Positions 1 to 16,237 of a DNA stretch of 64,000 nt are shown here, piece after piece. Origin of the DNA: Alphaproteobacteria bacterium (lineage in GTDB: Bacteria > Pseudomonadota > Alphaproteobacteria > CALKHQ01); the NCBI GenBank assembly GCA_965227515.1, contig CBDDFZ010000002.1, forward strand, positions 1,383,930-1,447,929, given 5' to 3'. The notes beneath the pieces are model-generated. The model was not told the DNA's origin and ran no database searches. It saw only the letters and a list, made by a program, of their open reading frames with translations. Position 1 is the stretch's first letter, and the number at the start of each line of letters is the position of its first letter. Both the position numbers and the translations under genes were made by a program.

Positions 1-1434
1 TGGGGCTATGCCGGCGTGCTGAACCTGGGCCAGGGCCTGTTCTTCGGGCTCGGCGCCTACATGCTGGCGATGTCGCTGAAGCTGGCCAGTCCGACCAGCC
101 TAGCCCAAGGCTCCGACCAGCCGATCCCCGATTTCATGATGTGGACTTCGGAGCCCGGGGCGGAGCTTGACCTGTGCTGCATCACCGGCGGTTCGTTCCT
201 GTGGATCCCGTTCGAGAATCAGTGGTTCGGCGTGTTCATGGGTATCGTGCTGCCGGTGCTGGTGGCGACCCTGGTCGGCTATGTGCTGTTCCGGCTGCGC
301 ATCTCCGGCGTGTTCATCGCAATCATCACCCTGGCGCTGGTGCTGCTGGTCCGGCTGATCGTCATCGACGCCCAGCCGGTCACCAACGGCTTCAACGGCC
401 TGACCGACCTTGGCTGGTTCACGGTCAACGATTTCGAGCTCGACCCCTATTTCGTCGAGACCTACTACGTCATCGCCGTCGTGACGGCGCTGGTGCTGAT
501 CTTTGCGCGATGGCTGGTCAGCACGCGCGCGGGCCTGATCCTGCAGTCGATCCGCGACGACGCCAACCGCGCTCGCTTCCTGGGCTTCAACGTCGCCCAC
601 TACCAGACCTTTTTCTTCGCGGTCTCGGCCGGCATCGCGGGGCTGGCCGGCATGCTGTTCGTGATGGCATCCGAGTTCGCGTCGCCCACGTTCATGGACC
701 TGGCCTTCTCCATCACCATGGTGGTTTGGGCCGCGGTCGGCGGGCGCCATTCGCTGCTGGGCGCGTGCATCGGCGCCTTCCTGGTCAACTTCATCGAGGA
801 CACGGTCAGCGAGACCGACGCGCTGGTGGAGGCGTGGAAAGCGATCATCGGCTTGCTGTTCGTGCTGGTGGTGCTGTTCCTGCCGCGCGGGCTGGCCGGC
901 TTCGCCAACGATGTGGTCGACCGGTACTTGCGGTTCGTACGCACGCCTCATGCGGCGCGGCGCCTGCCCTATCCGCGCGTGGCCGCGCTCATCTGCATGG
1001 CCTTCGTGGTGACCATGCTGCTGCCGTGGATGTCATTGAACGAGGAGGCGAACTCGATGTTCGATGCCGCGTTCCTCGGCTTCCCCGGAGGCGGATGGTT
1101 CGGCCTGGCGATGCAGATCGCGATCATCCTGGCCATCCTGATCGGCATCTTCGGCGCCATCATCATGGCGTCGGAAAAGACCCTGCGCAGGGCGGCCGCC
1201 ATAGCACCGGGCGTGTACATGCTGGCCGTGGTGCTGGTGTTCGCCATCGTTCTGTTTGCTGCCGTGCTGGCCGTTGAAGGCATGCAAGCGGAGTACGGTT
1301 TCTTCCTCGGTGCGGCAGTGGCCATAGGGCTGATCGCTTACGGATTGCTGGCACCCGCCCAGCCGCATGCAGTCACCGAAACGCAGCAAGACGCCGGCCC
1401 GGCAATCTCTGACGAGAGCAAGGCTGATGCGTGA
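1..1434 (+). CDS. urtC: Urea/short-chain amide ABC transporter permease UrtC-like; 5'-truncated by the window edge, with an extra hydrophobic C-terminal extension
   Basis: Frame is open from base 1 (WGYAGVLNLGQG, a typical UrtC motif). Contains the LivM-type motifs 'TNGFNGL', 'SIRDD..RARFLG' and 'WAAVGGR.SLLGA'. Followed by two ABC ATPases. Confidence 0.8.
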   Translation, partial: WGYAGVLNLGQGLFFGLGAYMLAMSLKLASPTSLAQGSDQPIPDFMMWTSEPGAELDLCCITGGSFLWIPFENQWFGVFMGIVLPVLVATLVGYVLFRLRISGVFIAIITLALVLLVRLIVIDAQPVTNGFNGLTDLGWFTVNDFELDPYFVETYYVIAVVTALVLIFARWLVSTRAGLILQSIRDDANRARFLGFNVAHYQTFFFAVSAGIAGLAGMLFVMASEFASPTFMDLAFSITMVVWAAVGGRHSLLGACIGAFLVNFIEDTVSETDALVEAWKAIIGLLFVLVVLFLPRGLAGFANDVVDRYLRFVRTPHAARRLPYPRVAALICMAFVVTMLLPWMSLNEEANSMFDAAFLGFPGGGWFGLAMQIAIILAILIGIFGAIIMASEKTLRRAAAIAPGVYMLAVVLVFAIVLFAAVLAVEGMQAEYGFFLGAAVAIGLIAYGLLAPAQPHAVTETQQDAGPAISDESKADA

Positions 1435-1476
1435 TCCGGGAACATTTGCGCGGGCGATGAACCCGGGGGTGCGGTC

Positions 1477-2259
1477 ATGAGCGACACGTCCGGCATGACG
1501 GGCGGCACGACGGGCGGCACGGCGCTGAAGGTCGACCAGCTCGAACTCGACTACGGCGGGTTCAAGGCGGTCGACGGCTTCTCCATGGAGGTGGCCGAGG
1601 GCGAGCTTCGCGTCCTGATCGGCGCCAATGGTGCCGGCAAGACCACGCTGATGGACCTGATCAGCGGCAAGACCAAGTCGACCGCCGGCAAGGTCTTTCT
1701 GCACGGCACCGACATCACCAACCGGCAGGAGCACCAGATTGCGCGCGCCGGTGTCGGCCGCAAGTTCCAGATCCCGAGCGTGTTCCGCGACCTGTCTGTG
1801 CGCCAGAATTTGAGCGTCGCCGCGACCGAGAGCAAGAGCGTGCTCGGCAATATCGGCCTTGGCCTGCGCCGCGCGCGCCGCGACGAGGTCGACCGCATCC
1901 TGGGCCTGATCGAGCTGCGCGAAAAGGCCGACGATGCCGCCAGCACCCTGTCGCATGGCGAGACCCAGTGGCTGGAACTCGGCATGCTGATGATCCAGGA
2001 CCCGAAGATCATCCTGCTCGACGAGCCGACCGCCGGCATGACCCATGCGGAGACCCTGAAGACGTCGCGCATCGTCAACGCCATGAAGGGCGAGCACACC
2101 ATCCTGGTCGTCGAGCACGACATGAGCTTCGTCAAGGAGATCGCCAACACCATCACCGTCATGCACCTGGGCAAGCGGCTGGCGGAAGGCACCGTCGACG
2201 AGATCGAGAACGATGCGGCCGTGAAGCAGGCCTATCTGGGCAGCGGGGGCATCCACTGA
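1477..2259 (+). CDS. urtD: ABC ATP-binding protein UrtD-like
   Basis: Walker [10 protein letters not shown], 'GRKFQIP', [10 protein letters not shown] signature, LLDEP, and C-terminal 'YLG'. Confidence 0.82.
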
Positions 2260-2951
2260 TGCTGTCGCTGGACCACGTCAACAGCTTCTACGGGCGCAGC
2301 CAGATCCTGCACGATCTGTCGCTGGAGGCGCGCGAGGGCGAGATCGTCGCCATTCTGGGCCGCAATGGCGTCGGCAAGACCACCTTGATGAAAACCATCA
2401 TGGGGCTGACCGACCGCATCGAAGGCACGATCCGGCTGCAGGACGTCGACCTGAGCCGGCGGTCGACGTTCGACCGGGCCCGCGCCGGCATCGCCTATGT
2501 GCCCCAGGGGCGCGAGATCATTCCCGATTTCACGGTGCGCGAGAACATCCTGATGGGGTGCTTCGCCCGCCCCGGCGAGCCCCGGCGGGTGCCCGACCTG
2601 GCGATGGAGCTGTTCCCCTATCTGCGCGAGAACATGGGCAAGCCCGGCGGTCTGCTGTCGGGCGGCCAGCAGCAGCAACTGGCCATTGCGCGCGCGTTGG
2701 CGGCGAAGCCGACCGTGCTGTTGCTCGACGAGCCGACCGAGGGCATCCAGCCCAACATCGTCGAGCTGATCGAGGGCGCGATCCAGACACTGAACCAGAC
2801 CCTGGGGCTCACGATCTTGTTGGTGGAGCAGAACGTTGCCTTTGCCCGGTCGGCGGCGCATCATTTCGCGATGATGGTCAAGGGCAGCGTGGTGGCGGCG
2901 GGGTCCGTCGCGGAACTGACCGATGCAGTGGTCGCGGAGCACATGATCTAG
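2259..2951 (+). CDS. urtE: ABC ATP-binding protein UrtE-like
   Basis: ATG overlaps the urtD stop (TGATG). Motifs [32 protein letters not shown] and [10 protein letters not shown]. Confidence 0.85.
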
Positions 2952-3046
2952 CCTGTCCCGGCAGGTGCGGCTGCGCGCTGCGAACAACAACGGCCCGCCG
3001 ATGGCGCAAAACGGCGCGGGCCGATCATCTAGAGAGGAGAGGCGTC

Positions 3047-4087
3047 ATGTATCACGGTGACATTTCCAGCAGTAACGACACGGTCGGCGTGGCCGTCGTC
3101 AACTACAAGATGCCGCGCATGCACACCAAGGACGAGGTGCTGGCCAATGCGCGCAACATCGCCTCGATGATGGAAGGCATGAAGATCGGCCTGCCCGGCA
3201 TGGATCTGTGCATATTCCCGGAATATTCGACCCACGGCATCATGTACGACGAGAAGGAGATGTACGAGACCGCCTCGTCGGTGCCGGGCGAGGAGACCGA
3301 GATTTTCGCGGCCGCCTGCCGGAAGACCAAGTGCTGGGGCGTGTTCTCGCTGACAGGCGAGCGCCATGAGGAGCACCCGAACAAGGCGCCGTACAACACC
3401 CTGATCCTGATGAACGACCAGGGCGAGATCGTGCAGAAGTACCGCAAGATCATGCCGTGGGTGCCGATCGAGGGCTGGTATCCGGGCAACTGCACCTACG
3501 TGACCGAGGGTCCGAAGGGCATGAAGGTCAGCCTGATCATCTGCGATGACGGCAACTATCCGGAAATCTGGCGCGACTGCGCGATGAAGGGCGCCGAACT
3601 GATCGTGCGCTGCCAGGGCTACATGTACCCGGCGAAGGACCAGCAGGTGGTGATGGCCAAGGCGATGGCGTGGGCCAACAACACCTATGTGGCGGTCGCC
3701 AACGCGTCGGGCTTCGACGGCGTCTACTCGTACTTCGGCCACTCCGCCATCGTCGGCTTCGACGGCCGCACGCTGGGCGAGTGCGCGGAGGAGGAGAACG
3801 GCATCCAGTACGCGCAGCTTTCCGTCAGCGCCATCCGTGACGCGCGGGCCAACATGCAGTCGCAGAACCACCTGTTCAAGCTGCTGCACCGTGGCTACAC
3901 CGGCATGATCAATTCCGGCGACGGCGACCGTGGCCTGGCCGAGTGCCCCTACGATTTCTACAAGAACTGGATCACCGATCCGGAGGGCACCCGCGAGGCG
4001 GTCGAGGCAATCACCCGCAAGACCGTGGGCACCGAGGAATGCCCGATGGACGGCATTCCGAACCAGAAAACGGCGACCCACCGCTAG
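3047..4087 (+). CDS. amiE: Aliphatic amidase (nitrilase superfamily)
   Basis: N-terminus [24 protein letters not shown] matches AmiE. Catalytic E-K-C motifs FPEYS, YRKIMPW and [16 protein letters not shown] ribosome-binding site upstream. Confidence 0.93.
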
Positions 4088-4158
4088 GGCGAGTTGGATC
4101 GCCGAAGGTCTTCGGCGGGTTGTTTCATCGACTCGCCGAAGTTTCTCTTCTAGCTCAA

Positions 4159-4267
4159 CGTCATGGCCGGGCTTGACCCGGCCATCCACGTAGATGCAGC
4201 GAGACGGTGGCCGCGCCGAAGTATGGCAACTGCCGCGTGGATGCGCGGATCAAGTCCGCGCATGACG
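4159..4267. repeat. Alphaproteobacterial REP/MITE-like palindromic element, copy 1
   Basis: CGTCATGGCCGGGCTTGACCCGGCCATCCACG ... CGTGGATGCGCGGATCAAGTCCGCGCATGACG: two hairpins in inverted arrangement. Related copies at 16151 and 61961. Confidence 0.8.
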
Positions 4268-4335
4268 AAGGAAATCGAAGGGCAAGGTAGCGTCGGCGTG
4301 TGCGGCTGACGCGCTATTCTGGCCACGGAAACTGT

Positions 4336-5133
4336 ATGTCGATCGAGCAATATCTGATCGCCGAGGAGCCCTACTACCGGCCCATCGGCAACGAAGTGGC
4401 GCTGTTCGAGGCCGCCTACAGGCAGCGCATGCCGATGATGCTGAAGGGCCCCACCGGCTGCGGCAAGACCCGGTTCATCGAGCACATGGCCTGGCGGCTG
4501 AAGAAGCCGCTGATCACCGTCTCCTGCCACGAGGACATGACGGCATCTGACCTGGTCGGCCGCTTTCTGCTGGAGGCCGACGGCACGGTGTGGCGCGACG
4601 GTCCGCTGACCACGGCGGTGCGCGAGGGCGCGATCTGCTATCTCGACGAGATCGTGGAGGCGCGGCAGGACACCACGGTGGTGATCCACTCGCTGACCGA
4701 CGAGCGCCGCGTGCTGCCGCTGGAAAAGAAGAACGAGCTGGTGCGCGCGCACCCCGACTTCCAGCTCGTCATCTCTTACAACCCCGGCTACCAGAGCGTG
4801 CTGAAGGACCTGAAGGAGTCGACCAAGCAGCGCTTCGGCGCCATCGAATTCGGCTATCCCGACGCCGCCATCGAGGCCGAGATCGTCGCCCACGAGGCCG
4901 AGGTCGACAAGGACCTGTCGCAGCGCCTGATCACCATTGCCGAGCGGTCGCGCAACCTGAAGGGCCACGGCCTGGAAGAGGGGGCATCGACCCGCATGCT
5001 GGTCCACGCCGCGCAACTGACGGCGGAGGGCGTGCCCCTGGGCGAGGCCTGCCAGGTGGCCCTGGTGCTGCCGATCACCGACGACGAGGACATGCGCGAC
5101 GCGTTGTCCTCCGCCATCTCGGCATGCACCTAA
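4336..5133 (+). CDS. CbbQ/NirQ/NorQ family MoxR AAA+ ATPase
   Basis: Walker A GPTGCGKT, '[15 protein letters not shown]', 'DGPLT', Walker [13 protein letters not shown], 'SYNPGYQ', 'LKESTKQRF' and 'STRML'. Confidence 0.9.
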
Positions 5134-5159
5134 ACCGTCGCCCCAGCAGGTGCTGAACG

Positions 5160-7433
5160 ATGGCGGACGCGCACCCGGCATTCCTGCGCGTCGTGGGCGC
5201 TGAAGACGCCGCACCTACGCCGGACCCGCAGCTCGCGCAGGCTTTTCCCGGAGACGCCACCGCCCGTTGGTTGCGCGCGGTGCGCAAGCTCGACGGCGCC
5301 GGCTACGGCAAGGCGGTCGTCGCCGCCTATGAACGGCAATCGCCAAAGATCGCGCTCGTCATCGGGCCGGATGGCGCCATCGAGCTGGCCGATACCGTGT
5401 CCGCGGTGGCGATCAAGGCAGGCGTCGCGGCGGCGGCGATGCTGCCCGCGGCCGCCCTGACCGTCGCCGAGCGGCTGGACGACCTCGCGCGCTACCGCTC
5501 CTGGCTCAGCCTGATGCAGCGTTTCACGGCGCTGGCGCCTGAGTCCGTCGGCGTGGTGCTGGAGCGGATGGACCAGTTGATCCGCGCGCTCAACGTCTCT
5601 CGGCTGGAGGCGTGGCTGCTGGCCGGCATCCGCGCCGCCGGCAGCGACCGCCAGCGCCGACTAAGCTTCTTCTCCATGGAGGACCCGGAGGCCGAGCGCT
5701 GGTTGCAGCGCGAAACCGGCGACGTGCTGTTCAGCGACGTCGAGCGCCGGATGAAGGCGTTCCTGACCGCCATGTGGCAGGTGCGGGTGCCGATCCGCGA
5801 GCCCAGCCTGAGCGCGCCGGCGCCGATGCGCCGCCGGCCCGGCTTCGGGCCTGGCATCATCCGCATGCCGGCGACGTTCCCGGGCTTCCGTGGCCGCAAG
5901 GCAGAGGACCTTTTCCGTGCCGCGCTGGCCCACATCGGCGCGCACTATCACTATTCGACCACCAAATTCCCCATCGGCCAGCTGAAGCCGATGCAGGTCG
6001 CCCTTGTCTCGCTGATCGAGGACGCGCGGGTCGAGCACCTGGCGATGCGCGCCTTTCCCGGCCTGAAGCGGCTGTGGTTCCCGTTCCACATCGCCCAGTC
6101 CAGCGGGTCGACCACGGCACCCAGCCTGATGGCGCGGCTGTCGCGCGCGCTGATCGACGCCGACTTCGAGGACGTCGATGCCTGGGTCAACAAGGGCCGG
6201 CACATGTTCTACGCGGTCGAGGAGCATTGGCACGATCCGGCCATCAGCCGGCACATCGGCAACTTGCTCGGTAACGATTTGGGCCAGCTCCGCATCCAGT
6301 TCAACGCCAAGGTCTACGTGCCCGAGCCGCCCTACCGCGACGACAACATGGGGCTGTGGGATTTCGGCGACGATGCCGCCCACATCGAGGAGACCGAGAT
6401 CGTGCTCGACAGCGTCCGCCTGCTGGAGCAGGAGGAGGACGACCCCGACCCGCCCGACCGCGACCGGGACGAGGGGACCGAGGAAGAGACGCCCAATGTC
6501 GCCAACGTGTCGCCGGAGGACGCGGTAGAGGATGGCATCCCGGTCGCGCGCTATCCGGAGTACGACTACGCCACCGGGCGCGAGCGCGCCGAGTGGACCA
6601 CACTGGTGGAATACCGTCCGACGCCGGGTCCGCTCGACAGGGCGCAGGAGATCCTGGACCGGCACCATGGCCTCGTCACCCGCATCTCCAACCTCATCCG
6701 GTCGGCCCGGGTCAGCCGGCCGATGCGCCTGAAGCGCCAGCCGGAGGGCGATCAGCTCGACATCGACGCCTGCATTGCCGCCGCGGTCAGTCGGCGCGCC
6801 GGCGACACGCCCGACCCGCGCGTCTATCAGACCACCGAGCGGCGCAATCGCGACCTCTCGGTGCTGCTGCTGCTCGATGTCTCCGAATCGACCCGCGACC
6901 GGCTGCGCGACGGCTTCGCCAGCGTGCTGCAGGTAGAGCGCGAGGCGACCCTGATGCTGGCCCACGCCATGGACGGTCTCGGCGATCCGTTCGCCATCGC
7001 TGCCTTCTCGTCGAACGGTCGCGAGGACGTGCGTTACCAGCGCATCAAGGATTTCGGCCAGCCCTACGACGCGATGGCGCAGCGCCATCTGTCGGGTTTG
7101 GAGAGCGGGCTGTCGACCCGGCTGGGGGCTGCCATGCGCCATGCCGGCGCCGACCTGGAGCGCCAGCTCACCCATCGCCGCCTGCTGCTGGTGGTGACCG
7201 ACGGCGAGCCGTCCGACATCGACGTCGACGACCGGCAGTATCTGGTGGAGGACGCGCGCCGCGCCGTCATCAACCTCGCCGACAAGGGCATCGACACCTT
7301 CTGCGTCGGGCTCGACAGCGGCGGCGACAGCTACCTCAGCCGCATCTTCGGCCGCCGCAACGCGATCCAGATCGACCGGCTGGAACGGTTGCCGGAGAAA
7401 CTGCCGATGCTCTACTTCCGCCTGACAGCCTGA
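5160..7433 (+). CDS. CbbO/NorD-like von Willebrand A domain protein
   Basis: 757 aa. 'IEDARVE', 'YRDDN' and 'YPEYDY' motifs, an acidic linker, and a C-terminal VWA with MIDAS residues (LLLDVSEST, STRLG, VTDGEP). Directly follows the CbbQ-like ATPase. Confidence 0.88.
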   Translation: MADAHPAFLRVVGAEDAAPTPDPQLAQAFPGDATARWLRAVRKLDGAGYGKAVVAAYERQSPKIALVIGPDGAIELADTVSAVAIKAGVAAAAMLPAAALTVAERLDDLARYRSWLSLMQRFTALAPESVGVVLERMDQLIRALNVSRLEAWLLAGIRAAGSDRQRRLSFFSMEDPEAERWLQRETGDVLFSDVERRMKAFLTAMWQVRVPIREPSLSAPAPMRRRPGFGPGIIRMPATFPGFRGRKAEDLFRAALAHIGAHYHYSTTKFPIGQLKPMQVALVSLIEDARVEHLAMRAFPGLKRLWFPFHIAQSSGSTTAPSLMARLSRALIDADFEDVDAWVNKGRHMFYAVEEHWHDPAISRHIGNLLGNDLGQLRIQFNAKVYVPEPPYRDDNMGLWDFGDDAAHIEETEIVLDSVRLLEQEEDDPDPPDRDRDEGTEEETPNVANVSPEDAVEDGIPVARYPEYDYATGRERAEWTTLVEYRPTPGPLDRAQEILDRHHGLVTRISNLIRSARVSRPMRLKRQPEGDQLDIDACIAAAVSRRAGDTPDPRVYQTTERRNRDLSVLLLLDVSESTRDRLRDGFASVLQVEREATLMLAHAMDGLGDPFAIAAFSSNGREDVRYQRIKDFGQPYDAMAQRHLSGLESGLSTRLGAAMRHAGADLERQLTHRRLLLVVTDGEPSDIDVDDRQYLVEDARRAVINLADKGIDTFCVGLDSGGDSYLSRIFGRRNAIQIDRLERLPEKLPMLYFRLTA

Positions 7434-7478
7434 ACTGAGAACCAGCGCAAGACGCGCGCCAAAGAGGGGGACCCCACG

Positions 7479-9002
7479 ATGACCTTGCGCCGCCCATCCA
7501 TCGACGACCTGATCACCATCGGCGAACGCGCCCACATCAACCTCAACGACGACGAGTTGGAGGTGCTGCCCGCCATCGTCGACGCCGTGCTTGAGGGCTA
7601 CGACGCGCTGGACCAGTACCCCGACCCGGTGCGCAAGGTGACGCCAGCGGTGCGCGTGCCCGGCCCCCGGCCAACGCCGGAGGAAGACCCGCTGAACGGC
7701 ATCGTGCGGACCTGCAGCGTGCAGGCGGTGCCGGAGGTGAACAACGGCCCGCTGTCGGGCAAGTCCATCGGGGTCAAGGACACCATTGCCGTCGCCGGCA
7801 TCCCGATGACCTGCGCGTCGCGGCTGCTCTACGACTACACGCCGGATATCGACGCCACCATCGTGGAGCGGATGCTGAAGGCCGGTGCCCACATCACCGC
7901 CGTGCTGAACACCTGTGACTTCGCGTTCTCCGGCGGCGGCCACACCTCCACCTACGGGCCGGGGTGCAATCCGGCCGCGCCTGACCATGCCGCCGGCGGC
8001 TCGTCCTGCGGTTCGGCGATCGCGCCGGCGGAGGGCGTCGTCGATATCGCGCTCGGCGGCGACCAGGGCGGCTCGATCCGCATTCCGGCGTCGTGGTCAG
8101 GTGTTGTCGGCCACAAGCCGACCCATGGCCTGGTGCCCTATACCGGCATCGTCGGCTTCGACCAGACCATCGACCACATCGGCCCGATGGCGATGACGGT
8201 GGAGGACTGCGCCCTCTTGATGGGCGTGATCGCCGGCAAGGACGAGAGCGCCATCGACCCGCGCCAGCCCGACACTATCGACGTGCCGGACTATGTCGGC
8301 GGGCTGACCGGCGACATAAGCGGCCTGAAGATCGCAGTGGTTCAGGAAGGCTTCGGCGGGCCGGAGGCGATGGCCCAGGTCGACGAGGCGGTGCGCGCGG
8401 CAGCGTCTAAGCTCGGCGGGATGGGCGCCACCGTGGAAGAGGTCTCGGTGCCGCAGCACATGATGGGCGTGCCGTTGTGGAACTGCATCGCCATCGAGGG
8501 CGGGGTCGACAGCTTCTATCACGGCCACACCAACTACGGCACCAAGGGCTGGTACAACCCGCGCCTGATCTCGGCGATGTCGCGGGCGATCAAGACCAAT
8601 GGCGGCGACTTCTCGCCCACGGCCAAGCTGGGCGTGCTGGTCTACCACTACATGAAGGACCAGTATCACGGCGTGTTCTACGGCCGGGCGCAGAACCTCG
8701 CCCGCCAGCTCACCAAGGCCTATGACGAAGTGTTCGCCGACTTCGACCTGGTGCTGATGCCGACAACGCCGCAGACGGCGCACAAGATGCCGGCGATGCC
8801 GGAGGAGGACCGCGCCGAGCATATCGGCCAGGCGCTCAACATGGTGCGCAACACCTGCGTGTTCGACATGACCGGCCACCCGTCGATCTCGGTACCGGTG
8901 AAGGGCGCGGGCGACCTGCCGATCGGCCTGATGCTGACCGGCCGCCAGTTCGACGACGCGACCGTGCTGCGCGCCGCCCACGCCTACGAGCAGGGGGCTT
9001 AG
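7479..9002 (+). CDS. Amidase-signature family amidase
   Basis: GVKD (catalytic Lys), GGSSCGS, GGDQGGSIRIPASW (Ser-cisSer-Lys triad) and GHKPTHGLVP. Confidence 0.9.
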   Translation: MTLRRPSIDDLITIGERAHINLNDDELEVLPAIVDAVLEGYDALDQYPDPVRKVTPAVRVPGPRPTPEEDPLNGIVRTCSVQAVPEVNNGPLSGKSIGVKDTIAVAGIPMTCASRLLYDYTPDIDATIVERMLKAGAHITAVLNTCDFAFSGGGHTSTYGPGCNPAAPDHAAGGSSCGSAIAPAEGVVDIALGGDQGGSIRIPASWSGVVGHKPTHGLVPYTGIVGFDQTIDHIGPMAMTVEDCALLMGVIAGKDESAIDPRQPDTIDVPDYVGGLTGDISGLKIAVVQEGFGGPEAMAQVDEAVRAAASKLGGMGATVEEVSVPQHMMGVPLWNCIAIEGGVDSFYHGHTNYGTKGWYNPRLISAMSRAIKTNGGDFSPTAKLGVLVYHYMKDQYHGVFYGRAQNLARQLTKAYDEVFADFDLVLMPTTPQTAHKMPAMPEEDRAEHIGQALNMVRNTCVFDMTGHPSISVPVKGAGDLPIGLMLTGRQFDDATVLRAAHAYEQGA

Positions 9003-9016
9003 AGGCAGAGCCCAAC

Positions 9017-9222
9017 CCCTCACCCTCCCGCATACCTCCGGTTCGCGGGTCCCTCCCTCTCCCAGAGGGAGAGGGGTTAATGAGTAGCGCCGGCCACTAC
9101 CCCTCTCCCTCTGGGAGAGGGGCCATTTCACCCTCTCCCTCAGGGAGAGGGAGGGACCCAAACCTGTCCTTGGGCCGGCCTTGAGCCGGTCCCGAGGGCC
9201 GGCAGGTTTGGGAGGGTGAGGG
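9017..9222. repeat. BoxC-like composite palindromic repeat
   Basis: Outer inverted pair CCCTCACCCTCCC / GGGAGGGTGAGGG enclosing three CCCTCTCCC-N(2-3)-GGGAGAGGG hairpins, between convergent genes. Confidence 0.75.
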
Positions 9223-9231
9223 TGTACCGAG

Positions 9232-10038
9232 TCAGCCCACATTCGCTGCGGTGAGGTCGACCATGTTCGTGTTGCGGCCGGAGACGTCGCGGCCGTGGAC
9301 CAGGAAGATCGGGCGCGCGCCGAAGTCGGGTGCCGAGGTACCCTTGGCGCCCTCCACCGTCGGCAGGTCGCGCTCGAACACCGACGTCGCCGGCATGTAG
9401 CGCAGCGCAACCCCGGCCCGCCTGCGGCCGGAGGTGTTCGGGTTCGACCCGTGGATCAGGTTGACGTCGTGCATCGACATCTGGCCCGGCGCCAGCACCA
9501 CGTCGGCTGCCTCGCCGGGGTCGAACGTGCCCTCGTCCAGGGCCTGGTTGAGGGCGAGGCCCGCGTCGTCGTCGGGATGGTGCGCGCGTAGCCCGCCATG
9601 ATGCGAGCCGGGGATGACGCGCATGCAGGCGTTGTCGGGCCCGCACTGGTCCAGCGCCACCCACACCGTGCACGTGGCCAGCGGGCGGATCGGCCAGTAG
9701 CGGCCGTCCTGGTGCCAGGGCACTTCCAGCCCGGTGCCCGCCGGCTTGCAGAACAGCGCGCAGCCCCACAGAATCAGGTCGGAGCCGATCAGGTCGGCAA
9801 CCCGCTCGACGATGTCGGCGTTGGTGGCGAGGTCGAGGAACGCCTGGTCGCCGCGCACGCCCTCCGGGCTGTCGGCCATGTGGACGTTCATCAGGTTCTC
9901 GGGCCGCTTGCCCGGATTGGCGGCCAGAACGCGCTCCAAGGCGTCGCGCAACCGCTCGACGGTCGCTGCCGGCAGCGTCAGGTCCGGCCGGATCCAGCCC
10001 GCCTGTTCGTATTCCGCGATTTCCTGTGTGCTCAGCAT
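9232..10038 (-). CDS. Phytanoyl-CoA dioxygenase (PhyH) family Fe(II)/2OG dioxygenase
   Basis: Start MLSTQEIAEYEQAGW. HxD motif WHQDG, 'TVWVALD', 'VIPGSH' and 'IHGS.PN.S..RR'. Confidence 0.85.
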   Translation of the reverse strand: MLSTQEIAEYEQAGWIRPDLTLPAATVERLRDALERVLAANPGKRPENLMNVHMADSPEGVRGDQAFLDLATNADIVERVADLIGSDLILWGCALFCKPAGTGLEVPWHQDGRYWPIRPLATCTVWVALDQCGPDNACMRVIPGSHHGGLRAHHPDDDAGLALNQALDEGTFDPGEAADVVLAPGQMSMHDVNLIHGSNPNTSGRRRAGVALRYMPATSVFERDLPTVEGAKGTSAPDFGARPIFLVHGRDVSGRNTNMVDLTAANVG

Positions 10039-10061
10039 TGCCCCGTCCGAAGCTGATCCCG

Positions 10062-12176
10062 CTATCCCGACAACAGATACCGCACCGCGGCGTCGCGTTC
10101 GAACAGATAGAGCAGCACCCGCAGCGCCTGGCCGCGCGGGCCGGTCAGCTCCGGGTCGCGCTCCATCACCAGCCGTGAGTCGTCGTGTGCGACCGCCAGC
10201 AGGTCGCGGTGCTCGTCCAGGTCGGCGACGCGGAACTGCGGCAGGCCGCTCTGGCGGGTGCCCAGCACCTCGCCGCTGCCCCTGATCCTGAGGTCTTCCT
10301 CGGCGATGCGGAAACCGTCGTCGGTCTCGCGCAGGATGCGCAGCCGTGCGCGCGCCGACTCCCCGATGCCGGCCGAGTAGAGCAGCAGGCAGGTGCCGCC
10401 GGCGAGCCCGCGCCCGACCCGGCCGCGCAACTGGTGGAGCTGGGCAAGCCCGAAGCGCTCGGCCTGCTCCACCACCATCACCGTCGCCTCGGGCACGTTG
10501 ACCCCGACCTCGATCACCGTGGTCGCGACCAGCAGGTCGACCGGGGTGTCGGCGGCCGTCAGCAGGTCGTTGTCGCGGCCGGAAAACCGCGCCATCACCC
10601 GGTCCTTGTCCGGGCCGGCCATCCGCCCGTGCACCAGCGCCACCTTGTCGCCGAAGCGTTTCTTCAGGCTGTCGTAGCGGTCGGTGGCGGCGACCAGGTC
10701 GATCTCCTCGGACTCCTCGACCGCCGGGCAGACCCAATAGACCTTGGCGCCCTTGTCCATGGCGCGCGCGACCCCGCCGATCACGTCCTCCAGCCGGTCG
10801 AGCGGCATAGCGCGGGTGTCGACCGGAATGCGCCCCGGCGGCTTCTCGTCCAGGATCGACTGGTCCAGGTCGCCATAGGCCGCCATCGCCAGGGTGCGCG
10901 GGATCGGGGTCGCGGTCATCACCAGCACGTCGGCGTGGCGCCCCTTCTGCGACAGCAGCATGCGCTGGTGGACGCCGAAGCGGTGCTGCTCGTCCACCAC
11001 CACCAGGCCCAGGTCGGCGAAGTCGACGCCCTCCTGGAACAGTGCGTGGGTGCCGATGGCGATGCCGATGCGCCCGGCGGCGAGGTCGGCCAGGGCGGCG
11101 TCGCGCGCCTTGCCCCGGTCGCGCCCGGTCAGCAGCAGCAGCGGCACCCCCAGCGCCTCCGCCCACGGCGTCAGCGTTTCCAGGTGCTGGCGGGCGAGCA
11201 GTTCGGTCGGCGCCATCAGGGCCGCCTGCGCGCCCGACTCAAGAGCGTTCAGCATCGCGCACATGGCGACCACGGTCTTGCCGCTGCCGACATCGCCCTG
11301 CAGCAGCCGCAGCATGCGGCGCGGTGCGGCCATGTCGTTGTCGATCTCGCCGAGCACGCGGAGCTGGGCGCCGGTCAGCGGGAAGGGCAGGGCGCCGAGC
11401 AGTTTCTCGCGCATCGGCCCTCCCACCTTGTAGACGCGGCCGGCGCGGCTGCGCTCCCGCGCCCGGATGATGGAGAGCGCGAGCTGGCTCGCCAGCAGCT
11501 CGTCATATGCCAGCCGGGTGCGCGCCGGGCCGGTGGGCGACAGGTCCTCGGTATCCTGGGGGCGGTGGACGGTGGCCAGCGCGTCGCGCCAACCCGGCCA
11601 GCCGCGCTGGCGCATCAGGCCGGTGTCGTTCCACTCCGGCAGTTCCGGCGCGCGGCGCACCGCCTCGCCGACCGCCTTGGCCAAGGTCTTCGGCGACAGC
11701 CCCTCGGTCATCGGATAGACCGGCTCCAGCACCGCCAGCTCGTCCATCTCGTCGGGGCGGGCGATGAAGTCAGGGTGTGCCATCTGCAAGCGGTCGTTGA
11801 ACGCCTCCACCTTGCCGGAGACGACACGCTGCTCGCCCACCGGCAGCACCCGCTCCAGATAGTCGCCACGGGCGCGGAAGAACACCAGGCTCAGGAAGCC
11901 GGTGTCGTCCTGGCCGACGACGACATAGGGGCGGCGCCGGTTCGGCGGCGGGCGGTGCTCCACCACCGTCAGTTCTATGGTGGCCACCGCGCCGATCACC
12001 GCATGGGCGATCTTCGGGCGCTTGCGCCGGTCGATGGCGCCGGTCGGCATGTGCCACAGCGCGTCGATCACCCGTGTGATGCCCAGCTTTTCCAGCAGCT
12101 TGGCGACACGCGGGCCGACCCCCTCCACCCTTTCGATGGGGGCGAACAACGGTTGCAGGACATCGGGTCGCGTCAT
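10062..12176 (-). CDS. recG: ATP-dependent DNA helicase RecG
   Basis: LQGDVGSGKT, DEQHRFGV, MTATPIPRTL, ATTVIEVGVNVP, AERFGLAQLHQLRGRVGRG and 'DLRIRG.GE.LG.RQSG'. Confidence 0.96.
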   Translation of the reverse strand: MTRPDVLQPLFAPIERVEGVGPRVAKLLEKLGITRVIDALWHMPTGAIDRRKRPKIAHAVIGAVATIELTVVEHRPPPNRRRPYVVVGQDDTGFLSLVFFRARGDYLERVLPVGEQRVVSGKVEAFNDRLQMAHPDFIARPDEMDELAVLEPVYPMTEGLSPKTLAKAVGEAVRRAPELPEWNDTGLMRQRGWPGWRDALATVHRPQDTEDLSPTGPARTRLAYDELLASQLALSIIRARERSRAGRVYKVGGPMREKLLGALPFPLTGAQLRVLGEIDNDMAAPRRMLRLLQGDVGSGKTVVAMCAMLNALESGAQAALMAPTELLARQHLETLTPWAEALGVPLLLLTGRDRGKARDAALADLAAGRIGIAIGTHALFQEGVDFADLGLVVVDEQHRFGVHQRMLLSQKGRHADVLVMTATPIPRTLAMAAYGDLDQSILDEKPPGRIPVDTRAMPLDRLEDVIGGVARAMDKGAKVYWVCPAVEESEEIDLVAATDRYDSLKKRFGDKVALVHGRMAGPDKDRVMARFSGRDNDLLTAADTPVDLLVATTVIEVGVNVPEATVMVVEQAERFGLAQLHQLRGRVGRGLAGGTCLLLYSAGIGESARARLRILRETDDGFRIAEEDLRIRGSGEVLGTRQSGLPQFRVADLDEHRDLLAVAHDDSRLVMERDPELTGPRGQALRVLLYLFERDAAVRYLLSG

Positions 12177-12299
12177 CGGCGGGCGGATTCGGTTGGACAG
12201 GCGGGCGGGCACGCGATATCGCATGCGCCCACGCACTTCCCATAACCAAATCCGAATGGCGCGGCAGGTCAACGCCGCTTGCCGCAAGAGTCTTCGCCC

Positions 12300-12578
12300 A
12301 TGCCGGACCCGACCGACCTGGAATATCGGCGCAAGCGCCTGATCTACCGCAGCCACCACACTGGCACCCACGAGACCGACCTGTTGCTGGGCCGGTTCGC
12401 CGATGCCCATGTGCCTGGCATGACCGCGCGCGACCTGGACGACTACGAGGCGCTGATCGACAACGCCGACCCGGACCTGTGGAACTGGATCAGCGGCCGG
12501 GTGGCGGTGCCGGCGGCCTACGACACCCCGGTGTTCCGCAGCCTGTGCGCCATGTCCTTCACGCCGAACGACTATTGA
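12300..12578 (+). CDS. sdhE: Succinate dehydrogenase assembly factor 2 (FAD assembly factor SdhE)
   Basis: 'RKRLIYRSHHTGTHETDLLLGRFA' resembles the RGxxE motif, plus 'DPDLWNW'. Conserved position between recG and mfd. Confidence 0.85.
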   Translation: MPDPTDLEYRRKRLIYRSHHTGTHETDLLLGRFADAHVPGMTARDLDDYEALIDNADPDLWNWISGRVAVPAAYDTPVFRSLCAMSFTPNDY

Positions 12579-12588
12579 ACGACCTTCG

Positions 12589-15500
12589 ATGATCCAGCTC
12601 GAACACAGCCTGAAGGCGCCGGGGCGCATGCTGGTCGGCGGGGTGCCGGACGGTGCCGATGCCCTGCTGATCGCACGCTACCTAGCCGGCGATGCCAGCC
12701 GCTCGCTGCTGCACGTCGCCCGGGACGATGCCCGGATGGCGCGGATGGCGGCGGTCGTGCGCTATCACGCGCCGGACGTGCGGGTGCTGGAGTTCCCGGC
12801 GTGGGACTGCCTGCCCTATGACCGGGTGGGGCCGAACGCACAGATCGTCGCCCGCCGGCTGGAGGGGCTGACCGCCCTGGCCAATGGCTTTGTGGGCGGG
12901 CTGGTGGTGACCACGGTCAACGCGCTCGCCCAGCGGGTGCCGCCGCCGTCGGCGCTGGCCGACGCGAGCTTCACCGCCGAGGTCGGCGACACCCTGGACC
13001 GCGAGGCGCTGACCGCGTTCCTGGAGCGCAATGGCTACCACCACACCTCCACCGTGCGCGAGCCGGGCGAGTACGCGGTGCGCGGCGGCATCATCGACGT
13101 GTTCCCGACCGGCGCCGAGCGGCCCTGCCGCGTCGACCTGTTCGGCGACGATATCGAGACCATCCGCGCGTTCGATCCGGTTGACCAGCGCAGCACCGGC
13201 CAGGACGTGGCGCTGGTCATCAAGCCGGTCAGCGAGGTGGCGCTGTCGGAGGACAACATCCGCAGTTTCCGCAGCGGCTATCGCGCGCTGTTCGGCACCA
13301 ATGTCAGCACCGATCCGCTGTACGAGGCGGTCAGCGCCGGCCGCCGCATCGCCGGCATGGAGCACTGGCTGCCGCTGTTCTACGAGCGGCTGGCCGCACT
13401 GCCGGACTATCTGCCCGGCACGCCGGTGACGCTAGACGCCCAGGCGGCGGAAGTGCGCGACGCGCGCCTGGAGACCATCGCCGACACCTACCAGACTCGC
13501 GCCACCGGCAGCGCGCTGGCGGAGGGGGCCACACCCTATCGCCCGCTGCCGCCAGAACGCCTCTACCTCGGCAGCGACGAGTGGGACGCGGCCCTGGCCG
13601 ACCGGCCCGTCGTTCAGTTCTCGCCGTTCGATGCGCCGCCCGGCGACAAGCAGGGACGCTCCGCCGGGGTCGAAGGCCCGCTGTCGTTCGCGGAGGCGCG
13701 CGCCGACCGGCAGGCGGCTCTGTTCGACGCAGCGGTCGCGGCCATTGCCGCCGAGCAGGCTGCCGGCCGCCGGGCGGTGGTGACCGGCTTCACGACGGGC
13801 TCGCGCGACCGGCTGATGGCGTTGCTGGGCGAGCATGGCTTGGGCACCGCGCTGGCAGTGGAAAGCTGGGCCGAGGCGATGAAGGCGCCGAAGGGCGTCG
13901 TCGTGCTGCCCGTCCTGCCGCTGGAAACCGGCTACCGCACCCGCGACCTCGCGGTCATCACCGAGCAGGACATCCTGGGCGAGCGGATGGCGCGCGCGCC
14001 GCGCCGCCAGCGCAAGGCCGACAACATCATCGCCGAGGCGAACAGCCTGGCCGAAGGCGACCTGGTGGTGCACCGCGAGCACGGCATCGGCCGCTATGAC
14101 GGGCTGATCGCGATCGAGGTGGCCGGCGCGCCCCACGACTGCCTGCGCGTGCTCTACGCCGACGACGACAAGCTGTTCCTGCCGGTGGAGAACATCGAGG
14201 TGCTGTCGCGCTTCGGCCCCGGCACCGACGGCGTGGTGCTCGACCGGCTGGGCGGGGTCGCCTGGCAGGCGCGCAAGGCCAAGGTCAAGAAGCGCATCCG
14301 CGAAATCGCCGATCAGTTGATCCGCATCGCCGCCGAGCGGGTGGTGCGCACCGGCGAGACCGTGGAGGCGCCGGACGGCGTCTATGACGAGTTCGCCGCG
14401 CGCTTCCCGTATCCGGAGACCGACGACCAGCTCCGCGCCATCGAGCAGACCATTACCGATCTGGCGTCCGGCAAGCCGATGGACCGGCTGATCTGCGGCG
14501 ACGTCGGCTTCGGCAAGACCGAGGTGGCCCTGCGCGCCGCGTTCATCGCCGCCATGTCGGGCGGGCAGGTGGCGGTGGTGGTGCCGACGACGCTGCTCTG
14601 CCGGCAGCACTTCGCCACCTTCAAGGAGCGGTTCCAGGGCCTGCCGGTTCGCATCGAGCAGCTCTCGCGCCTGGTGACGCAGAAAGACGCGACCGCCACC
14701 CGCAAGGCGCTGGCCGAGGGCCAGGTCGACATCGTCGTCGGCACCCACGCGCTCCTCTCCAAGTCGATCAAGTTCAAGCACCTGTCGCTGCTGATCGTCG
14801 ACGAGGAGCAGCATTTCGGCGTCGCGCAGAAGGAGCGGCTGAAGCAGCTCAAGTCCAACGTCCACGTGCTGACGCTAACCGCGACGCCGATCCCGCGCAC
14901 CTTGCAACTGGCACTGTCGGGCGTGCGTGACATGAGCATGATCGCGACCCCGCCGGTCGACCGGCTGGCGGTGCGCACCTTCGTGCTGCCGTTCGACCCG
15001 GTGGTGATCCGCGAGGCGCTGCTGCGCGAGCACTATCGCGGCGGCCAGACCTTCTATGTCTGCCCGCGCGTCAGCGACCTGGCCCGCGTCGAGGAGCGGA
15101 TCGCGGAACTGGTGCCCGAGGTGAAGATGCGGGTCGCCCACGGCCAGATGGCGCCGAGCGCGCTGGAAGAGGTGATGACCGCGTTCTACGACCGCCAGTT
15201 CGATGTGCTGCTGTCGACCCAGATCGTGGAGTCCGGGCTCGACCTGCCGGCGGCCAACACCATCATCATCCACCGTGCCGATATGTTCGGGCTTGCCCAG
15301 CTCTATCAGCTGCGCGGGCGGGTCGGGCGCGGCAAGGTGCGCGCCTATGCCTATCTCACGGTGTCGCCGGGCAAGGTGCTGACCGGCGGCGCGCAGCAGC
15401 GCCTGCAGGTGATGCAGACGCTCGACACCCTGGGCGCCGGCTTCACGCTCGCCAGCCACGATCTGGACATTCGCGGTGCCGGCAATTTGCTGGGCGAGGA

Positions 15501-16150: not shown

Positions 16151-16237
16151 CGTCATGCCCGCACTTGTTGCGGGCATCCACGTCTTGGCATCGTTAGAAG
16201 AAAGTCGTGGATGGTCGGGACAAGCCCGACCATGACG
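16151..16237. repeat. REP/MITE-like palindromic element, copy 2
   Basis: CGTCATGCCCGCACTTGTTGCGGGCATCCACG ... CGTGGATGGTCGGGACAAGCCCGACCATGACG. Same architecture as 4159-4267. Confidence 0.8.

Follow-up and report, generated by a model that had tools for sequence, protein, structure and literature searches.

MoxR-type AAA+ ATPases that work with a VWA-domain partner act on Rubisco, nitric oxide reductase, cobaltochelatase and fumarate reductase, as far as the clients of such machines are named in the accessible parts of the literature (including PMC13036017 and PMC9976466). Two of these systems are the reference points for the present locus: CbbQ/CbbO, the Rubisco activase of chemoautotrophic bacteria, and NorQ/NorD, the iron-insertion chaperone of nitric oxide reductase. 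The linkage of a pair of this kind to amiE, the gene of an aliphatic amidase, is already known from a mention in passing. The plasmid-borne ami operon of Pseudomonas veronii Yu15 holds amiE, amiC and amiR together with a protein matching AAA (PF07728) and PF08406 and with a NorD-like protein, and the authors guess that the latter two serve amidase assembly or activation (2026, PMC13209695). The accessible text of that paper covers this single operon, whose gene set is the same as that of the loci described below, in one paragraph and includes neither a survey nor a tree or experiment; we describe below the recurrence of the linkage in many bacteria. Our literature search agreed with the initial annotation of the locus that no amidase client has been characterised for the CbbQ/CbbO family, although both the gene linkage and the same guess already stand in PMC13209695. 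The Pseudomonas-type amiEBCRS operon carries a different ATPase gene, amiB, and the available part of a review calls its product poorly described, with a suspected chaperone role that was never resolved (PMC12591593).

The window analysed here is a stretch of 64,000 nucleotides of an alphaproteobacterial genome. On its + strand urtCDE and amiE are followed by Q, an AAA+ gene of the CbbQ type, then by O, a VWA gene of the CbbO type, and by an amidase-signature gene; profile matches to Pfam and NCBIfam found the last four at the positions given by the initial annotation, all co-oriented. The Urt-type urea/short-amide ABC transporter is represented by the permease gene urtC (1–1434, with its 5′ end outside the window; TIGR03408 UrtC, 330.2 bits against a cut-off of 296.2) and by the ATPase genes urtD (1477–2259; TIGR03411, 322.9 bits against 304.1) and urtE (2256–2951; TIGR03410, 300.5 bits against 285.8). 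Each product exceeds its equivalog cut-off, which bears out the placement of the pair downstream of Urt-like genes. UrtA and UrtB are encoded just 5′ of the window start (locus L047), and urease genes lie divergently, immediately 5′ of the operon, in a cluster with UreG- and UreE-type accessory genes. The amiE gene (3047–4087, + strand) encodes a nitrilase-superfamily aliphatic amidase of 346 residues (CN_hydrolase, E = 8.3e-48), which is the proposed client of Q and O. It scored 716.3 bits against the NCBIfam aliphatic amidase model NF009802 (equivalog cut-off 427), and its closest solved relatives are the aliphatic amidases 2plq (659 bits) and 2uxy (639 bits). Residues E59, K134 and C166, which we take to be the catalytic Glu-Lys-Cys residues, are invariant in all 62 aligned sequences. 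The last gene of the set (7479–9002, + strand) encodes an amidase-signature enzyme of 507 residues (Amidase PF01425, E = 2.6e-87; PRK07235, 589.7 bits against a cut-off of 545). Searches with tblastn for Rubisco and NorB found no match within the window, as the initial annotation had stated for Rubisco and nor genes. The same held for the host genome, which is 99.67% complete: RuBisCO_large had no match in it and NorB was absent, the only two COX1-family genes being those for CcoN and CtaD. CbbQ_C and O-like genes each occur just once in the genome, which makes this the sole Q/O pair.

Q (4336–5133, + strand) encodes a CbbQ/NorQ-type MoxR AAA+ ATPase of 265 residues, with matches to AAA_5 (E = 7.5e-35) and CbbQ_C (PF08406, E = 8.5e-32), the latter spanning positions 1–84 of the 85 in the model. 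We place its start at the ATG at 4336; the list of open reading frames begins instead at a GTG at 4300. The best solved relatives of Q are the CbbQ structures 5c3c (417 bits) and 6l1q (393 bits), a likeness to the Rubisco activase, with NorQ (9qh4, 321 bits) behind them. The Walker A motif (G38-P-T-G-x-G-K-T45) and the Walker B motif (D104-E105) do not vary across the 52 sequences compared.

O (5160–7433, + strand) begins 27 bases 3′ of Q and encodes a CbbO-type adaptor of 757 residues (VWA, 31.1 bits against a cut-off of 23.8). Its domain plan comprises a helical-repeat N-domain, a middle domain with an HxxxH...ED.R motif, an acidic disordered linker, a beta-hairpin 'finger' and a MIDAS-bearing VWA domain. 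The model of the full-length protein (pLDDT 81.9) puts the linker at residues 405–456, the hairpin at 460–485 and the VWA domain at 490–757. The MIDAS was described as intact at the outset, and all of its residues are indeed present (D573-x-S575-x-S577, T653 and D681); they are invariant in 28 of 28 O sequences and likewise across the amiE-linked and Rubisco-linked groups. O and Rubisco CbbO align over their full length, have the HxxxH...ED.R motif and the MIDAS in common and are alike in size (about 745–775 residues for O, against a median of 764). Matches of O in Rubisco-linked loci (tblastn) had 31–38% identity over most of the protein, and 57 columns, including H258, H262, E287, D288 and R290, are invariant in amiE-linked O and Rubisco-linked CbbO alike; under the criterion used there were no fixed differences between the two groups. 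Identity to Rubisco CbbO is 48% in the VWA domain of O and drops to just 21% over the first 230 residues of the protein.

The likeness to NorD is confined to the C-terminal part. Residues 440–732 of O match NorD (E = 8.3e-66), and the VWA part matched NorD 9qh6_G as a VWA-with-finger fold (Foldseek, E = 1.6e-20, TM 0.73), whereas the N-terminal 440 residues have no NorD match and NorD is shorter (median 636 residues). Matches of O in nor loci (tblastn) were likewise limited to about the last 300 residues. The plan of N-domain, disordered linker, finger and VWA agrees with that given for NorD in the accessible sections of PMC9976466 and PMC13036017. For the N-terminal half of O, Foldseek returned nothing at E ≤ 0.001. 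VIA-align related residues 20–190 to designed helical repeats, with Z up to 11.2, which is below the value of about 13 needed for helical repeats, and residues 190–370 showed a weak likeness to zincin peptidases (Z 6.0 and 5.9); we treat both of these predicted likenesses as leads only. An Atlas search with residues 1–404 gave unnamed clusters and a lead to CobT at 0.92.

Phylogenies were built for both proteins, with a CbbQ_C sampling that took in all but 82 of the 182 sampled matches. A representative search with Q was excluded from tree building; its best 150 matches were mostly fragments and midasin-like giants. In the O tree a branch with an SH-aLRT of 89 sets 52 amiE-linked rows apart on one side, among them a core of 49 rows supported at 99. 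Rubisco CbbO (37 rows, support 99) is sister to them, and the joint clade is supported at 100. The O of the window falls outside the Rubisco-linked CbbO clade, in its sister clade, and NorD stands apart from the joint clade. In the Q tree the core amiE-linked clade (52 rows at 98) adjoins Rubisco CbbQ, with NorQ in another clade. Six amiE-linked rows lie outside this core, a result that counts against AmiE as the client. A tree constrained to unite all 31 amiE-linked rows was rejected, though mildly (p-AU 0.023), for a group that was named post hoc and includes long branches. On these trees the amiE-linked Q/O resolves as a sister lineage of Rubisco CbbQ/CbbO. Like NorQ and NorD it combines a MoxR AAA+ ATPase with a VWA partner; unlike them, it has no norCB linkage and, in the window's host, sits in a genome without NorB. 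It differs from the Rubisco pair in forming a separate clade, in the lack of Rubisco both in this genome and in 124 amiE-type loci, none of which encodes RbcL, and in its presumed client, a metal-free thiol hydrolase.

Linkage to amiE was surveyed with O as the seed, AmiE itself not being used. This search gave 44 loci, five of which end at a contig edge upstream. The order amiE-Q-O was present in all 39 loci whose upstream sequence reaches far enough, and among the 37 with at least 7 kb upstream both AmiE and Q were found in every one. Other neighbours in those 37 were AmiC-like (29), Urt (26), AmiR (21) and the amidase-signature gene (8). A second search, seeded with AmiE, covered the 80 best loci, which are the AmiE loci closest to that of the window; 71 of them have Q and/or O, adjacent to amiE in 47, with intervening genes in 13 and on the opposite strand in 11. 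Since several gene orders occur among these loci, the linkage survives rearrangement. The initial annotation had asked whether amiE-linked copies form their own clade with conserved synteny, and the answer is affirmative for one of its two amidases, AmiE. In one locus (L139) Rubisco stands beside AmiE; we considered shared use of one pair there and rejected it, as L139 has its own AmiB-like gene, and we treat the adjacency as chance.

The company that AmiE keeps was also sampled across the phylum. AmiE is present in 29 of the 401 genomes in this sample. The pair lies next to amiE in eight of the 29 and an AmiB-like AAA+ gene directly follows amiE in another eight; the other 13 have neither ATPase within 7 kb, and in two of them AmiE has an in-frame stop. 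The Q/O pair is thus not beside amiE in 21 of the 29, and a CbbQ_C gene is absent genome-wide in 16. Because AmiE so often occurs without Q/O in this sample, the pair is accessory and not obligatory. The AmiB-like genes confirm the initial statement that the Pseudomonas ami operon carries AmiB in place of such a pair: they occupy the same slot directly after amiE, and they belong to another AAA+ clade, with an AAA_2 plus ClpB_D2-small architecture against the AAA_5 plus CbbQ_C of Q and with no VWA partner. This Pfam assignment also ruled out AmiB as a member of the CbbX family. The two systems were never found together (AmiB-like genes in 0 of 124 Q/O-type loci), and AmiB-linked AmiE forms its own clade (11 rows, support 100). 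Seven fixed differences separate Q/O-linked from AmiB-linked AmiE; they track the split in the tree and prove nothing about client specificity.

The reading we prefer, at a probability of about 60% and on genomic evidence, is that Q and O form a dedicated MoxR-type AAA+/VWA machine that remodels or reactivates AmiE. Physical contact of the pair with AmiE, and its effect on the enzyme, are what we infer. The linkage in 39 of 39 loci and its persistence through rearrangement, the genome without Rubisco and NorB, the trees, the convergence with AmiB-like genes and the invariant ATPase and MIDAS motifs together suggest AmiE as the client. By analogy with CbbQO and NorQD, a single O would dock on a hexamer of Q and insert its beta-hairpin finger into the pore, AmiE would be held by the MIDAS face and the N-terminal helical domain of O, and ATP hydrolysis by Q, transmitted through O, would loosen it. 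The likeliest purpose would be maintenance and not folding, namely the reopening of AmiE hexamers in a dead-end or inhibited state, in the way that the sister lineage acts on Rubisco. Alternatively, Q/O may tune AmiE assembly or activity. AmiE output from the operon would be high and that of Q/O low. The initial annotation put forward the release of an inhibited acyl-enzyme or of bound urea as a mode of action, which would likewise be a form of reactivation; a literature search on the inhibition of AmiE by urea gave nothing usable.

Several observations count against AmiE as the client. AmiE is a metal-free thiol hydrolase, whereas metal insertion is the commonest task of MoxR-VWA pairs, and AmiE produced recombinantly is active with no partner of this kind. 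With 13 of 29 genomes having neither ATPase beside amiE, the pair is dispensable for AmiE in many bacteria. Lysate amidase activity was still present in a strain with no ATPase gene listed in its amiE operon, according to the available text of PMC13209695. Complex prediction of the VWA domain with the amidase, which the initial annotation had proposed, scored above its controls for AmiE, with a weak value and no interface returned. AmiE with O residues 460–757 and Mg scored 0.32 (runs 0.32, 0.00 and 0.39; best of three controls 0.00), using our own alignments and a riding Mg, unlike the calibration set. In that set 58 of the 80 solved complexes reach the mark, as do 2 of the 110 mismatched pairs; at scores of 0.60 or below, only seven of the 80 do so, along with both passing mismatches. 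Contact agreement between runs was at least 0% and partner pLDDT at least 77. The prediction gives weak backing to a possible contact.

The same data can be read without any physical tie, the pair serving another client in trans or acting as a general nitrogen-starvation chaperone that co-travels with amiE in a co-regulated, mobile amide/urea-scavenging island. The 21 of 29 AmiE genomes without the pair beside amiE and the weak prediction fit this account, as does evidence of mobility: 90 plasmid records match O, 22 of them covering at least 80% of it, and the module also occurs in metagenome-assembled genomes labelled as distant phyla. We nevertheless consider it unlikely. AmiE is the sole constant neighbour besides Q (present in all 37 loci, while no further gene exceeds 29), the linkage is kept across at least four gene orders, and hitch-hiking leaves unexplained why an unrelated AAA+ gene fills the slot after amiE elsewhere. 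Nor do the regulators and the transporter make a convincing target. Splitting of an AmiC-AmiR complex or assembly of the ABC importer would suit the frequency of AmiC-like (29), AmiR-like (21) and Urt (26) genes in the 37 loci, and an old idea ties AmiB to transport (PMC12591593, in its accessible part). Such a role is very improbable, given that six of the 37 loci have amiE-Q-O with no Urt, AmiC or AmiR within 7–8 kb upstream and that the window itself gave no match to AmiR or AmiC.

Metal enzymes of the island deserve separate mention, with urease as the main candidate and nickel as the metal that the pair would help to insert, in the manner of NorQD or CobST. Metal insertion is the best-known task of MoxR-VWA pairs (PMC13036017, in the text available), urease genes lie divergently just upstream of the window's operon, Pfam-confirmed ure genes lie between amiE and Q in L082, and UreC follows amiE and precedes Q or O in L075, L081, L105, L111, L113, L121 and L127. 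Across the survey, however, UreC was within the fetched flanks of just 3 of 44 O-seeded and 14 of 80 AmiE-seeded loci. Accessory genes are already there, UreG/UreE-type in the window's upstream cluster and UreF, UreG and UreD in L082, and the sister Rubisco pair is described in the accessible part of PMC9976466 as a remover of inhibitors and no metal inserter. Together these points make a urease client quite improbable. The amidase-signature enzyme, alone or together with AmiE, is scarcely credible as the client. Its gene starts 46 bases after O and directly follows O in the Kiloniellales-labelled relatives L006 and L007, so the initial description of a pair between two amidases is true of the window; the arrangement is specific to this lineage. 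Of the 37 loci, only 8 have the gene near O, and these are all close relatives; it lies upstream of amiE in L008 and 1–2 kb away in L004, L005 and L037. Judged by this distribution it is a lineage-specific passenger of the operon and no conserved partner of the pair.

If remodelling of AmiE by Q/O is correct, a small metal-free thiol hydrolase would join the clients and MoxR-VWA machines would have a wider remit. As the nearest relative of the CbbQO Rubisco activase, the amiE-linked lineage offers a natural outgroup for the origin of the activase and for the parts of CbbO that choose the client. The presence of two unrelated AAA+ systems in the slot after amiE provides a testable idea for the role of AmiB. 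A further-reaching version, possible and in our view doubtful, is that AmiE is the second enzyme after Rubisco to have independently recruited unrelated AAA+ 'activases', one CbbQ/CbbO-type and one the Clp-type AmiB, both rescuing dead-end amidase hexamers, and the 30-year-old AmiB puzzle would be answered likewise. In that version reactivation of an inhibited enzyme, and not metal insertion, would be the ancestral job of the CbbQ/CbbO clade, because the amiE-linked pair is sister to the Rubisco pair. Aliphatic amidases serve as biocatalysts, and a dedicated reactivating partner could affect their lifetime. The Q/O-amiE module is found on plasmids of cultured rhizobia, which opens it to ordinary genetics; tractable carriers include Rhizobium etli 8C-3, where the operon is on a plasmid, and isolates of Pelagibius and Thioclava.

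The noncoding parts of the locus were also scanned. A consensus scan of the region found no sigma-70-like promoter sites, and Rfam over positions 1–10000 gave no leader RNA family; its sole match, to a miRNA at 29.3 bits against a gathering score of 100, is taken as chance. A terminator-like hairpin with a T-rich tail lies directly 3′ of amiE (4099–4141, + strand), with a 13-pair stem at 4110–4141 and an 8-pair stem at 4099–4118; it comes from a consensus scan that gave four such sites in the region against 2.1 expected, which makes it weak alone. The amiE-Q spacer also contains a dispersed REP-like repeat (4165–4190, + strand), which matches a second copy at 16206–16231 on the − strand with three mismatches, a match that 0 of 100 shuffles reproduced.

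The first 9002 bases of the window hold a closely packed row of genes on the + strand, running from urtC to the amidase-signature gene. The urtC (1–1434, its 5′ end beyond the window), urtD (1477–2259) and urtE (2256–2951) genes all score above their NCBIfam equivalog cut-offs. They are followed by the aliphatic amidase gene amiE (3047–4087; NF009802, 716.3 bits against a cut-off of 427), the CbbQ-type AAA+ gene, here called Q (4336–5133; AAA_5, E = 7.5e-35; CbbQ_C, E = 8.5e-32), the CbbO-type VWA gene O (5160–7433, 757 aa; VWA, 31.1 bits against 23.8; no match among NCBIfam families), and the amidase-signature gene (7479–9002; PF01425, E = 2.6e-87; PRK07235, 589.7 bits against 545). These domain and family matches agree in every point with the gene content and layout given in the initial annotation. 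Directly upstream of the window are urtA and urtB, preceded by a divergent urease cluster (UreE-like gene, fused gamma/beta subunit gene, ureC and UreG-type GTPase gene; locus L047, G000:C2:1372000-1384200), so that the whole region is a urea/amide nitrogen-scavenging island. Downstream, a PhyH-domain gene (−), recG (−) and mfd (+) at 9232–16065 are housekeeping genes unrelated to the operon, which therefore ends at 9002. The 248-base spacer 3′ of amiE contains a terminator-like hairpin (4099–4141, +) and a GC-rich, palindromic repeat of 26 bases (4165–4190, +), whose second copy, with three mismatches, lies at 16206–16231 (−). A match of this kind occurred in 0 of 100 shuffles, and the repeat is probably a REP-like dispersed element.

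We searched the rest of the genome, which is 99.67% complete, for Rubisco and cNOR, the usual clients. RuBisCO_large had no match in the whole genome. Haem-copper oxidases are represented by just two genes, CcoN (745.5 bits, cut-off 583) and CtaD (712 bits, cut-off 671), and NorB is therefore absent. CbbQ_C and O-like genes occur once each in the genome.

The feature is real and its linkage to amiE is conserved. Seeding with O only yielded 44 loci in one-genome-per-species contigs; in 39 of them O was immediately preceded by amiE and then Q, as in the window, and the remaining five end less than 700 bases from O, with the end of Q still visible in two. Where 7 kb or more of upstream sequence was available (37 loci), AmiE and Q were each present in all 37, AmiC-like genes in 29, Urt genes in 26 and AmiR in 21, and six contained no Urt, AmiC or AmiR gene. 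The pair had initially been described as lying between two amidases, but the amidase-signature gene was found at 8 of these 37 loci as opposed to all 37 for AmiE; it is no constant partner but a passenger found in close relatives only. Seeding with AmiE gave at least 587 relatives, of which we kept the 80 best (84–88% identity). Within 7 kb, Q and/or O were present in 71 of these best 80 loci, both in 60 and neither in nine. Q was adjacent on the same strand in 47 and separated on the same strand by 1–7 kb of other genes in 13 (a permease and an alpha/beta hydrolase in Bradyrhizobium-labelled loci, a urease cluster in Burkholderiales-labelled loci); it lay downstream on the opposite strand in six, and in five O alone was seen, on the opposite strand at the locus edge. 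That the linkage survives such rearrangements argues for a functional tie to amiE. UreC fell inside the fetched flanks of 3 of the 44 O-seeded and 14 of the 80 AmiE-seeded loci, and RbcL, NorB or an AmiB-like gene (the Clp-type ATPase gene of the Pseudomonas-type ami operon) in none of the 124.

To place the pair in its family, 401 genomes of the phylum were searched for CbbQ_C, giving 182 matches in 150 genomes. We fetched 100 loci (all 29 listed from the window's class, 43 listed from outside family f40, and 28 from f40, which is over-represented), clustered the neighbours and named cluster representatives by Pfam. The contexts of 103 Q genes, which are not frequencies because 82 of the 182 matches were left out, were norCB (48), Rubisco (27), amiE (4), Rubisco plus amiE (1) and none of these (23). 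In a quick LG+G4 tree of 157 rows, the window's Q belongs to a clade of 52 rows, every one amiE-linked (SH-aLRT 98); a mixture model on 68 rows again gave this core a support of 98. The Rubisco CbbQ clade (37 rows) neighbours the core, and NorQ stands apart. Six amiE-linked rows lie outside it, L082 and L113 adjoining the Rubisco clade and L070, L126, L195 and L196 basal in the joint clade. Forcing all 31 amiE-linked rows of the 68 together cost 21.4 log-likelihood units (p-AU 0.023), for a group that was chosen after the tree was seen and that has two long branches. The O tree (145 rows, 741 columns; L070, L082 and L113, without a full-length O in the locus, are absent) placed 52 of 52 amiE-linked rows on one side of a branch with support 89 (49-row core, 99). 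These rows are sister to Rubisco CbbO (37 rows, 99) in a joint clade with support 100, and the other side holds NorD and a clade of unknown context. The amiE-linked copies thus form a lineage of their own, a point that the initial annotation had put forward for testing, in full for O and as the 52-row core for Q.

The CbbQ/CbbO affinity of the pair is further backed by comparison with solved structures, by size and by shared invariant columns. Solved CbbQ structures give Q scores of 417 and 393 bits, solved NorQ structures 321 and 302 bits. O is about 745–775 aa long, whereas the median is 764 for Rubisco-linked CbbO and 636 for NorD; Rubisco CbbO has 57 invariant columns in common with O over its whole length, whereas NorD matches only residues 440–732. 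Identity between Rubisco CbbO and O ranges from 21% over the first 230 residues, the least similar part, to 48% in the VWA domain, the most similar. According to parts of PMC9976466, the N-domains of NorD and CbbO are unrelated, and that of NorD is proposed as a target binder giving specificity. Thirteen further Q genes (L164, L166, L172, L174–L176, L179, L182–L185, L198, L201) form a separate clade; every one is accompanied by an O-like protein of about 700 aa, and no Rubisco, nor or amiE gene is among their neighbours. This clade is positioned differently in the Q and O trees, and its neighbours vary (APS-reductase beta and an FAD protein in L198, a NIR_SIR sulfite/nitrite reductase-like gene in L183).

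Structure models of O (mean pLDDT 81.9 at full length, 90.5 for the N-half) predict a helical-repeat domain (residues 22–206), a middle domain (220–400) with an invariant A-H258-x-x-A-H262 helix followed by E287-D288-x-R290, an acidic disordered linker (405–456), a long beta-hairpin (460–485) and the VWA domain (490–757). Hairpin and VWA domain together match the solved NorD VWA domain 9qh6_G (E = 1.6e-20, TM 0.73); in NorQD structures a finger lies inside the NorQ pore and the linker is remodelled (parts of PMC13036017). The MIDAS residues are unchanged in 28 of 28 O sequences and Walker A and B in 52 of 52 Q sequences, so the machine looks functional from its motifs. H258-x-x-x-H262 and, about 25 residues past this helix, E287-D288-x-R290 (window 5928–6029, O residues 257–290; model m756fdb8ec870) are common to amiE-linked O and Rubisco CbbO. 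A weak resemblance to zincin peptidases (ZMPSTE24, Z 6.0; 3cmn, Z 5.9) is seen in the middle domain, which lacks the Glu of HExxH; it may be a degenerate zincin-like metal site, with Z values too low for a fold claim.

AmiE occurs in 29 of the 401 sampled genomes (77–100% identity). Q is directly beside it in eight (G000, the window's own, G064, G260, G265, G271, G239, G301, G363), an AmiB-like gene is directly downstream instead in another eight (G059, G083, G136, G217, G241, G255, G263, G379), and 13 have neither type within 7 kb; in 16 of the 29 carriers no CbbQ_C gene was found anywhere in the genome. In the classic amiE-amiB-amiC-amiR order the AmiB-like gene is AAA_2 plus ClpB_D2-small (Pfam); this module is of the Clp/Hsp100 type and has no relation to MoxR. 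A FastTree phylogeny of AmiE (133 rows) groups the proteins followed by an AmiB-like gene in a single clade of 11 rows (support 100); the Q/O-linked ones fill the other side, and ATPase-less copies are scattered, requiring at least nine changes. Q/O is missing from some other members of the genus of G239, so the presence of the pair varies even within a genus. Two of the 13 copies without an ATPase neighbour carry an in-frame stop (one TAG, one TGA; L256 in G285, L257 in G235) and may be pseudogenes or sequencing errors.

The Q/O pair is therefore an accessory for AmiE. An obligatory role in folding or assembly is disfavoured because AmiE works without the pair in many bacteria; lysate amidase activity is described, in a part of PMC13209695, for a strain with no ATPase gene listed in its amiE operon. 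Mere hitch-hiking accounts poorly for the neighbourhood pattern: in 16 of the 29 genomes, more than half, one or the other of two unrelated types of AAA+ ATPase gene stands after amiE, never both, as expected if AmiE profits from ATP-driven remodelling. We infer, with a probability of about 0.6, that AmiE is the client of Q/O. A single complex prediction of AmiE with O residues 460–757 and Mg, made with a separate alignment per protein, scored 0.32 (runs 0.32, 0.00 and 0.39) against 0.00 for the best of three controls, weak support that raises the odds of the contact proposed in the initial annotation a little and no more; no interface was returned. Contact agreement between runs was at least 0% and partner pLDDT at least 77. 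In calibration, 58 of 80 solved complexes reached the mark, as did 2 of 110 mismatched pairs, and at scores up to 0.60 only 7 of those 80 did so, along with both passing mismatches; the own alignments and the riding Mg depart from this calibration.

By analogy with CbbQO and NorQD (parts of PMC9976466 and PMC13036017), one O would sit on a Q hexamer with its finger inside the pore, the client would be gripped by the MIDAS face and N-domain of O, and ATP hydrolysis by Q would be relayed through O, loosening the client. We favour maintenance, the reactivation of inhibited or trapped AmiE, over assembly, because the pair is dispensable, because the sister lineage works on an inhibited, already assembled enzyme (parts of PMC9976466), and because the hairpin 3′ of amiE suggests that the enzyme is made in large and the chaperone in small amounts. 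In Pseudomonas, amiB transcript levels are below those of amiE (from a part of PMC12591593). The inhibitor may be urea, which would fit the Urt transporter and the neighbouring urease. This idea rests on a slow inactivation of the Pseudomonas amidase by urea, for which our literature search found no paper.

The bare amiE-Q-O linkage is already in print: one paragraph of PMC13209695 (2026) mentions Q- and O-type genes in a plasmid ami operon and on Burkholderiales chromosomes. Our search of the literature on CbbQ, NorQ, MoxR, CbbO or NorD with amidase found no survey, phylogeny or experiment. In public annotation Q-type genes are named 'CbbQ/NirQ/NorQ/GpvN family protein' and O-type genes 'VWA domain-containing protein'. 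The present analysis adds how widespread the linkage is, how the pair relates as a sister lineage to the activase of Rubisco, that neither the amidase-signature enzyme nor urease is a constant partner, and that an AmiB-type ATPase is a mutually exclusive alternative to the pair.

Several loci deserve separate mention. Across classes AmiE shows unusually high conservation (62 aligned sequences; column identity 89% on average; 78–90% to the window's copy), and at the same loci identity to the window's copy is 65–82% for Q and 45–66% for O. A urease set lies between amiE and Q/O in L082 (8350–13342: UreF, gamma/beta fusion, UreC, UreG, UreD) and in L075, L081, L105, L111, L113, L121 and L127, among loci labelled Burkholderiales, Bradyrhizobium and Rhodopseudomonas. 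Near-identical amiE-Q(-O) modules in MAGs labelled Mycobacterium, Verrucomicrobia and Acidobacteriaceae (L012, L090, L102) point to horizontal transfer or mis-binning. At many AmiE loci that lack Q/O, a formamidase gene of the FmdA_AmdA family stands immediately ahead of amiE or close to it, past the urt genes; formamidase-bearing loci are L245–L250, L253–L264, L241 and L242, and G239 (L264) has the order urtCDE, hydrolase gene, fmdA, amiE, Q, O. In L139 (G136:C10:136751-151002), urtDE, amiE, an AmiB-like AAA_2 gene, a LysR gene on the other strand, rbcL, rbcS, cbbQ and cbbO bring two kinds of AAA+ system within 9 kb; we read the closeness of amiE and Rubisco as chance, since this Q sits in the Rubisco clade. 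On a conjugative Rhizobium etli plasmid (L244, NZ_CP017242.1 315483–331663), an acetate-CoA ligase gene directly 3′ of O is the last of the operon, which fits acetamide as substrate (acetamide to acetate to acetyl-CoA).
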